Shown here piece after piece: positions 61,814 through 64,000 of a stretch of DNA of 64,000 nucleotides. Positions within the stretch are counted from its first letter, which is position 1; every line of letters begins with the position of its first letter. The position numbers and the translations under genes were made by a program. The DNA is taken from NCBI RefSeq assembly GCF_988243305.1, contig NZ_OZ547136.1; one strand, given 5' to 3'. Below the pieces are notes generated by a model. It searched no databases. It had not been told where the DNA came from and saw only the letters and a list, made by a program, of their open reading frames with translations.

Positions 61814-62180
61814 TTATTCATAGCGTCTGCTACGTGCGGGACGAGGTCGGGTGTACCAGGCAATGCTGCCTAACAATGCCCCGACCAGAGCCATAAATAA
61901 AAATCCGACCAGTGCCCCTAACCACTTTCCCGCGGTAGAGCCTAAATCGCTTTTCAAATCCCGACACCGGGGCATCAGGGATCCGGCTCATCACCCAGAT
62001 GTAACGCGCCATTGCCCAGACGAAATAGCCACACCATGTATAGAAAGCCCACAAAGCCAATTTGCCGCCAGGGCTGCGAGAGAGTCTCTCTTCCATCTTT
62101 GTCGAACCGTATTCCATTTTGAGATAACCCGGAAAATTCAGACATAGTACTATTATGTGATAAAAGTCACATTTTTCCAC
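61814..62180 (-). pseudogene. yedR: yedR with apparent +1 frameshift in an A/T homopolymer (possible pseudogene or sequencing error)
   Basis: N-terminal part through ...PVSGFE is in one frame; the hydrophobic C-terminal helix SDLGSTAGKWLGALVGFLFMALVGALLGSIAW...RRYE* is in the +1 frame after tttt at 61951-61954. Confidence 0.6.
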
Positions 62181-62745
62181 ATTGGATGAGCCAGTCAAGA
62201 CTCAATCATTTTTTGAACAAATAGATAAATTTTGCGCAACGGCAATAATTACTGGAAAAACAGCAATAAAGATTTATTTATATCCTTGGTAATAGTTTTA
62301 TTAATTCACCCAAACAATATATTAGCACTGAATACAATTATACCTTTTTTGATTTCTGTGTCATGATAACCCCGTTATTAGCCTTTTATCGTCTTGTTTA
62401 TATTTTTTGGGCCGGCATGATGCCGGCTTTTTTTATACCTTCATTAATGTGCGCGTGATCACGCCTGCCGTTTGGCGCAACAATCATTGATACTCCCTAT
62501 CTTTCCATTCAACTCATAACATATTGATATACATTTATAATTTTCATGAATGTTTATATTTAGAATTCATAATTCTGAATTATATTAAATAGATTAGAAA
62601 CATTTTGAAATCTTTTAAATACATTTGTTACATGTAATCCTTAAAATAAAATGAACTTCATAGAATAGTATCCAAATGTGCTTTTTTTTGGATAACGGCA
62701 CTTATTGATATATTCATGAAGATTATAATCACAAGGGAATACATA

Positions 62746-63933
62746 ATGAAAAGAAAAGTTCTGGCAATGCTGGTCCCGGCGTTATTAGTTGCTGGCGCAG
62801 CAAATGCGGCTGAAGTCTATAATAAAGATGGTAATAAACTGGATTTGTACGGAAAAGTAGCGGGCCTGCACTACTTCTCTGATGATGCTGGCAGCGATGG
62901 CGACATGTCATATGCCCGTATCGGTTTCAAAGGTGAAACTCAGATCGCTGACCAATTCACTGGTTATGGTCAGTGGGAATTTAACATTGGCGCAAACGGT
63001 CCTGAAAGCGACAAAGGTAATACCGCAACGCGTCTGGCATTTGCAGGTTTAGGCTTTGGTCAGAATGGTACTTTCGACTATGGTCGTAACTACGGTGTCG
63101 TATATGACATCGAAGCATGGACCGATATGCTGCCAGAATTTGGTGGCGATACCTATGCTGGTGCCGACAACTTCATGAACGGTCGTGCTAATGGTGTTGC
63201 AACCTACCGTAACAATGGCTTCTTTGGTCAGGTCGATGGCCTGAACTTTGCTCTGCAATATCAGGGTAATAATGAAGATGATGGATTATTCGGTCAGGAA
63301 GGTTCTGGTAACGGTAATGGCCGTAAGTTAGCTAAAGAGAACGGCGACGGCTTCGGTATGTCCACTTCCTATGACTTTGACTTTGGTTTAAGTCTGGGCG
63401 CTGCTTACTCTAACTCTGACCGTACCGACAATCAGGTTCACAAAGGTACTCATAACACTCGTTATGGAGATCGCTTCGATGCAACTGCTGGCGGTGAAAC
63501 AGCAGAAGCATGGACCGTTGGTGCTAAATACGACGCTAATAACGTTTACTTAGCAGCTATGTATGCTGAAACCCGTAACATGACTGGTTACGGTGATGCT
63601 GATGCGATCGCTAACAAAACCCAAAACTTTGAAGTTGTTGCTCAGTATCAGTTCGACTTCGGTCTGCGCCCGTCCATCGCTTACCTGCAATCTAAAGGTA
63701 AGGATTTAGGCGGTGTAAATAGTGATAACTTCGACAGCCAGGGCAATCATCATTACACCAACAAAGATCTGGTTAAATATGTTGATATTGGTATGACCTA
63801 CTACTTCAACAAAAACATTTCCACCTACGTTGATTACAAAATCAACCTGCTGGACAACGACGACGACTTCTACAAAGAAAACGGCATCGCTACCGATGAT
63901 ATCGTAGCTGTGGGCTTAGTCTACCAGTTCTAA
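62746..63933 (+). CDS. yedS: outer membrane porin, OmpC/OmpF/PhoE family (yedS position), intact
   Basis: Signal peptide [21 protein letters not shown] then [17 protein letters not shown]..., C-terminal ...VGLVYQF; AT-rich upstream region. Confidence 0.8.
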
Positions 63934-64000
63934 TCAGCCAACGCGCCGCGGCGTGTTACTGTAAAACTTAACAATAGCCTGAGTTCGTCCCTCATCGAAC

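Follow-up and report, generated by a model that had tools for sequence, protein, structure and literature searches.

The 64,000-nt stretch of DNA analysed here (the window) carries an intact allele of yedS, a porin gene that is a pseudogene in E. coli K-12. The observation made in an earlier note on this DNA is thereby confirmed. The gene has been described before, and the intact state seen here is the usual one among the natural E. coli sampled. Our joint reading, to which we assign a probability of about 85%, is that the gene is an intact yedS allele and a chromosomal paralogue of ompC, ompF, phoE and ompN, that it would encode a general diffusion porin forming a trimeric 16-stranded β-barrel, that it would be silenced by H-NS under laboratory conditions and expressed conditionally, and that the intact state is common.

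The gene is contained in an open reading frame on the plus strand (62716..63933), in which the ORF list and the sequence show neither an internal stop nor a frameshift. The second in-frame ATG, at 62746, is a credible start, as it is preceded by a porin-type Shine-Dalgarno sequence and opens an OmpC-like signal peptide. A start at 62716, which yields the 405-residue form found in some database entries, was rejected; it has no Shine-Dalgarno sequence and places 10 extra residues before the canonical signal peptide. The YedS precursor of 395 residues ends in ...AVGLVYQF and matches the Pfam profile Porin_1 (PF00267) from end to end (profile positions 1-337 of 337, 472.9 bits, E = 9.2e-142). It also matches the whole of NCBIfam NF007841, the OmpC subfamily (profile positions 1-368 of 368), with 539.7 bits against a cutoff of 484, this being a subfamily model and not an equivalog. 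With the NCBIfam equivalog models for OmpF and PhoE the protein scored below the cutoffs (444.8 vs 583 and 440.3 vs 599, respectively).

Comparison with public genomes revealed that positions 62200-64000 match E. coli JE86-ST05, a Shiga-toxin-producing enteroaggregative O86 isolate from Japan, with 100% identity, and that one base differs between the window and this genome over 7.8 kb. At the same coordinates, PGAP has annotated an intact CDS in JE86-ST05, WP_000824408.1. The earlier note had claimed a full-length porin with a signal peptide and a C-terminal Phe, which is borne out by the ORF, by the full-length Pfam and NCBIfam matches and by the alignments. It had also allowed for a disruption missed by eye; none was found, the ORF being uninterrupted and the identical CDS in JE86-ST05 being annotated as intact. 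A scan of the longer JE86-ST05 locus identified an intrinsic terminator of yedS, the full element of which corresponds to window positions 63976-64007. The features of the region are collected in Table 1.

Table 1. Features of the yedS locus, in window coordinates.
Feature	Position	Strand	Basis and remarks
drpB (yedR), frameshifted	61814..62117	-	One extra A in the run 61951-61954; alignment with K-12 and EC4115
rseX small RNA gene	62345..62434	+	Rfam RF01401, 97.8 bits vs gathering score 50, E 1.1e-13; MG1655 has b4603 in this position
yedS regulatory region and 5' leader	62435..62745	+	21-32% G+C; ~98% conserved across all allele classes
Weak promoter candidates	62559-62586 and 62625-62652		Consensus scan
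TGTWACAW, candidate OmpR-type site	62625..62633	both	TGTTACAT / TGTAACAA; ~115 bp upstream of ATG
Shine-Dalgarno-like AAGGGA	62733..62738	+	8 nt 5' of ATG; layout as in ompC/ompF initiation regions
yedS CDS, intact	62746..63933	+	1188 nt, 395 codons + TAA; ORF list, Pfam/NCBIfam, identity to WP_000824408.1
Signal peptide, 21 codons	62746..62808	+	Cleaved before AEVYNKDG; aligned with K-12 OmpC/OmpF/PhoE/OmpN precursors
Loop L3 (constriction loop), residues 113-150	63082..63195	+	PEFGG, D127, E131; alignment invariants; flanked by strands 5 and 6 in the AlphaFold model
Codon 162, CAG (Gln) here, TAG (amber) in K-12	63229..63231	+	Pairwise DNA alignment with MG1655 yedS
Base deleted in O157:H7 EC4115 and strain 115 (1-bp frameshift, gene nt ~606)	63351	+	Alignment; PGAP 'frameshifted'
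Base deleted in K-12 and LD27-1 (1-bp frameshift, gene nt ~663)	63408	+	Alignments
Intrinsic terminator of yedS, first part	63976..64000	+	12-bp stem AGCCTGAGTTCG...CGAACTCAGGCT then TTTTT; cut by the window end

Alignment of the window gene with yedS of MG1655 (b4496) was collinear over the whole gene, with 1047 of the 1169 aligned nucleotides identical (89.6%). The two copies are separated by four indels, three of which are in frame; the remaining one is the K-12 frameshift. The statement in the earlier note that the K-12 copy is disrupted proved correct, since K-12 carries both an amber codon and a 1-bp deletion and the window has neither. When the K-12 gene was repaired in silico, 349 of 389 aligned residues (89.7%) were identical between the two proteins, and 50 of the 53 amino-acid differences were located in predicted external loops, mainly L4-L7.

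An intact yedS is the usual state among the E. coli sampled, with K-12 as the exception. For this sample, 40 matches were listed at even steps through the 4891 matching genomes, and 15 of these 40 were examined. The locus contained an intact CDS in 10 of the 15, a pseudogene in four (two of the O157 type, K-12 and LD27-1) and an IS1 insertion in one (strain 2018-11-3CC). LD27-1 has the same deletion as K-12 and lacks the amber codon. The allele of EC4115 and strain 115, frameshifted at another position (Table 1), is 96% identical to that of the window. A census of 5426 complete genomes, using exact 61-mers spanning each lesion, identified the K-12 amber codon in 357 genomes, the K-12 1-bp deletion in 371 and the O157 1-bp deletion in 298. 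The exact window protein is present on at least 1000 public contigs, where it is named 'porin OmpC', 'outer membrane protein N' or 'Porin OmpN'. The lesions show that yedS has been lost in K-12/LD27-1, in O157:H7 and in the IS1 strain by at least three independent routes, and this recurrent loss shows that the gene is dispensable. The intact state is probably ancestral.

Other E. coli encode intact genes of 397, 387, 371, 357 and 352 residues at the same locus, with 59-91% identity to the window protein. The shorter of these alleles (352-371 residues, ~60% identical) have the L3 motif LVEWGGDSW as opposed to LPEFGGDTY, and the nearest relatives of the LVEWGGDSW alleles, at ~80%, are unnamed porins of Enterobacter, Citrobacter, Leclercia and Klebsiella. 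The signal peptide of the divergent alleles is the same as in the window, and their promoter region is ~98% identical to that of the window.

Several deeply diverged classes of allele occur at the locus behind a single conserved promoter region, and a search of the literature, which was not exhaustive, found no description of them. A role of the drpB-hchA interval as a 'porin cassette' site could be imagined, in which a conserved H-NS-type promoter, leader and signal would drive porin segments that are exchanged by recombination, maintained by purifying selection and repeatedly lost. We regard this speculation as rather unlikely. If true and undescribed, it would amount to a natural system for the replacement of surface-porin alleles, with phages, colicins, immunity or antibiotics as the driving pressure.

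The origin of the window allele itself might lie outside the species, as a recent import from other Escherichia, e.g. E. albertii, by homologous recombination and not by vertical descent. The window protein belongs to a 90%-identity cluster represented by an E. albertii sequence, to which it is 95% identical, and identity of at least 99% over the locus was found in only 4 of the 5426 complete E. coli genomes. Furthermore, the flanks are conserved with the coding core replaced, and dS between alleles ranges from 0.07 to 2.3, which looks large for alleles within one species. On the other hand, the names attached to the contigs encoding the exact protein are all E. coli. We consider such an import unlikely; it is compatible with the main explanation, an intact and conditionally expressed yedS, and not opposed to it.

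Selection on the protein was estimated from dN/dS (Nei-Gojobori) between the window gene and six other intact alleles of the yedS locus. For the whole gene the ratio was 0.06-0.22, for the barrel with its turns 0.03-0.13, and these low values indicate long-term purifying selection on the protein. The estimates bear on another explanation, that the frame is open and the gene functionally dead, i.e. never transcribed, decaying and not yet lesioned. This would fit the H-NS silencing of the yedS region in K-12 and the independent origin of at least three types of lesion (the K-12/LD27-1 deletion, the O157 deletion and the IS1 insertion). It would also fit the frameshift in the neighbouring drpB and the rarity of serum antibodies to YedS, found in just one of 141 healthy individuals (PMC11242715). 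However, the barrel ratios were obtained at dS values from 0.07 to more than 1, and the concentration of differences from the repaired K-12 protein in the external loops is typical of a surface protein that is exposed and expressed. The ~98% conservation of promoter and leader, and the functional YedS reported by Warner (2013) according to citing papers, likewise argue against a dead gene, which we consider very unlikely. The preferred reading remains an intact gene that would be normally silent and conditionally expressed.

The interval of ~310 bp between rseX and the ATG is ~98% conserved in eight strains, including strains with a very different coding class. This promoter region, AT-rich and of the H-NS type, speaks for a gene that is silent in the laboratory. 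Mutation of hns de-repressed RseX 'and surrounding areas' in K-12 (PMC8313858). In a published table of sigma-E effects, 'yedS (ompS1)' appears as 2.5-fold down (PMC2731931), and the K-12 yedS locus therefore yields some measurable transcript. The outer-membrane proteome of STEC has been reported to include a porin with '50% homology' to K-12 YedS (PMC9731836). We infer that YedS would be a conditionally expressed, normally silent 'quiescent' porin, silenced by H-NS under laboratory conditions. Its measurable contribution to the permeability of the outer membrane would come mainly upon de-repression, or when OmpC and OmpF are lost.

A consensus scan for promoters upstream of yedS gave 9-of-12 matches only, in a number that did not exceed that of shuffled sequences (9 vs 5.6 +/- 2.5). 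The motif TGTWACAW was derived from OmpR ChIP-seq in S. Typhi, where two copies are found upstream of ompS1 (PMC3586657). It has only 3 matches in the 64-kb window, two of which are the site upstream of yedS. As an OmpR-type site this is suggestive only, and it could be due to chance in DNA of 22% G+C. An imperfect 30-nt tandem direct repeat (62572-62631, 73% identity) ends at the TGTWACAW site. Like the short palindromes of AT-rich sequence in the promoter region, this repeat could not be told apart from chance.

The abstract of Warner et al. 2013 is said to describe MicF-dependent control of YedS. Pairing of the 5' 33 nt of MicF with the yedS initiation region gave -7.7 kcal/mol, and 473 of 500 shuffles were as good or better, whereas the ompF control gave -27.1 kcal/mol with 0 of 500 shuffles as good. 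Given this weak pairing, direct binding of MicF at the initiation region is not supported, and the link between MicF and YedS is not confirmable from sequence. In a run with full-length RNAs, which gave whole-length duplexes devoid of meaning, RseX did not pair with the leader of yedS any better than shuffled sequences did.

The signal peptide of YedS was identical in all six yedS-locus alleles compared, and 18 of its 21 residues match those of OmpC, with the same cleavage site. Alignment of the precursors revealed a cleavable signal with an Ala-X-Ala site, and the solved chains of mature porins begin at query residue 22. At the other end of the protein, Y393, Q394 and the C-terminal Phe of the β-signal, F395, are invariant in all alignments. 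The residues of the OmpF constriction (K16, R42, R82, R132, D113 and E117) correspond to K37, R58, R96, R147, D127 and E131 of YedS. All six charges, as well as the PEFGG motif (P130-E131-F132-G133-G134), are invariant in the alignment of YedS, OmpC, OmpF, PhoE and OmpN.

An AlphaFold2 model based on a 14-sequence alignment has 16 strands and predicts an antiparallel β-barrel with moderate confidence (mean pLDDT 64.8, pTM 0.67). Long low-confidence segments were found at L2, L3, L4 and L5, and the loops have pLDDT < 50. By sequence, the best solved relative is OmpK37 of Klebsiella (PDB 6v78, E 5.7e-145). By fold, Foldseek likewise ranked OmpK37 first (E 2.4e-43, target-normalised TM-score 0.84), with the two proteins 63% identical in its alignment, and the target-normalised TM-scores to OmpK37, OmpK36, OmpC and OmpF were 0.83-0.86. 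From what is known of the family, the precursor would depend on Sec for export and lose its signal peptide after ANA, BAM would insert the protein in response to the ...YQF signal at the C-terminus, and trimers would form. Small hydrophilic solutes, including β-lactams, would then diffuse passively through a pore narrowed by L3, the acidic side of which (D127/E131) would face a basic ladder of K37, R58, R96 and R147.

The gene order in JE86-ST05 is dcm, yedJ, drpB, porin, hchA, hprS and hprR. The same order is found in NEB Turbo, a K-12 derivative whose porin gene is flagged 'frameshifted; internal stop', and in MG1655, where rseX (b4603) and then the pseudogene yedS (b4496) are located between drpB and hchA. 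In the window, the porin gene lies 3' of drpB (yedR) and rseX; hchA is past the window end and follows in the 100%-matching JE86-ST05. The porin does follow yedR, as had been stated in the earlier note, in the order drpB-rseX-porin-hchA known from MG1655. Since drpB is frameshifted here, the landmark 'yedR' is itself a pseudogene in this DNA.

This cell-division gene has a 1-bp insertion relative to K-12 and is also marked 'frameshifted' by PGAP in JE86-ST05, and an independent 1-bp deletion in drpB is present in O157:H7 EC4115. The rseX gene is arranged in tandem with yedS, 311 bp upstream, and a terminator scan assigned it a terminator of its own (stem 62409-62429). The 5' part of rseX in the window differs from that of seven other strains (TGATT for ATTAT, and AACC for GCTT in the loop). 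About 55 bp located some 45-100 nt upstream of rseX (62244-62300) are strongly divergent in the window only. Downstream, E. coli LR4 has an extra opposite-strand ORF between the porin and hchA, annotated as 'hypothetical protein', which is unannotated in the other strains examined. The intergenic region between yedS and yedR has been employed as a host-source marker (PMC11267920).

In alignments with the K-12 porins, the window protein was 74% identical to OmpN, 66% to OmpC, 62% to OmpF and 61% to PhoE. JE86-ST05 has a separate, intact ompC of 367 residues (2776346-2777449) located between apbE and rcsD. The window gene is not an orthologue of ompC (b2215), as it is found at a different locus and its closest K-12 paralogue is OmpN, not OmpC. 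That it is nevertheless ompC or ompF, relocated, was a possibility allowed for in the earlier note, and a relocated or duplicated copy is suggested by the PGAP product name 'porin OmpC'. The score above the NF007841 cutoff and the RefSeq label 'ompC: porin OmpC' on the gene in thousands of genomes would favour it, but NF007841 works at subfamily level, identity to OmpC is lower than to OmpN, the K-12 yedS pseudogene is collinear with the window gene and so is its surrounding DNA, and a relocated ompC, barely credible, is ruled out by synteny and by the true ompC that JE86-ST05 keeps at the canonical apbE-ompC-rcsD position.

The RefSeq name of the yedS-locus gene arises because the gene passes the subfamily-level model. 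In the JE86-ST05 record (NZ_AP022815.1), the symbol ompC and the product 'porin OmpC' have been given both to 2446116-2447303, the yedS locus, and to 2776346-2777449. As a result of this naming, genomes like JE86-ST05 seem to have two ompC genes, which could mislead screens for porin loss in carbapenem resistance if these count 'ompC'.

The earlier note had also proposed that an extra porin in this strain may have consequences for antibiotic permeability. This is plausible, and there is a published precedent in the active yedS of a carbapenem-resistant clinical isolate (Warner et al. 2013, Antimicrob Agents Chemother 57:1935, as paraphrased in PMC4048246 and PMC11267920). A yedS-intact strain is predicted to possess a reserve channel, which could partly restore the entry of β-lactams, or be selected against, upon loss of OmpC/OmpF. 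As K-12 is the exception, inventories based on K-12 underestimate the range of porins in natural E. coli. The practical value of these findings is modest, and they contain nothing new in kind.

Among known systems, YedS of K-12 (b4496, formerly b1964-b1966) has the locus, signal peptide, leader and promoter region in common with the window allele, which differs from it by in-frame indels and by substitutions concentrated in loops L4-L7. The resemblance to OmpC, the major osmoporin, extends to family, fold, a nearly identical signal peptide, the PEFGG motif and the charged constriction residues, whereas ompC has micF upstream and yedS has rseX instead. OmpN of E. coli and OmpK37 of Klebsiella pneumoniae are minor or 'quiescent' porins that share with YedS the length of L3, one residue longer than in OmpC, as well as long L4 and L7 loops. 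However, ompN adjoins uspF at another chromosomal locus, the insertions in L5 and L7 are longer in YedS than in OmpK37, and both porins are paralogues of YedS and not orthologues. OmpS1 of Salmonella (STY2203) is a quiescent porin; H-NS and StpA repress it, LeuO relieves the repression, and its expression depends on OmpR. The yedS gene resembles it in having AT-rich DNA and TGTWACAW upstream and a neighbourhood silenced by H-NS, and yedS has been equated with ompS1 in the table of sigma-E effects cited above (PMC2731931). By analogy, the regulation of yedS may be OmpS1-like.
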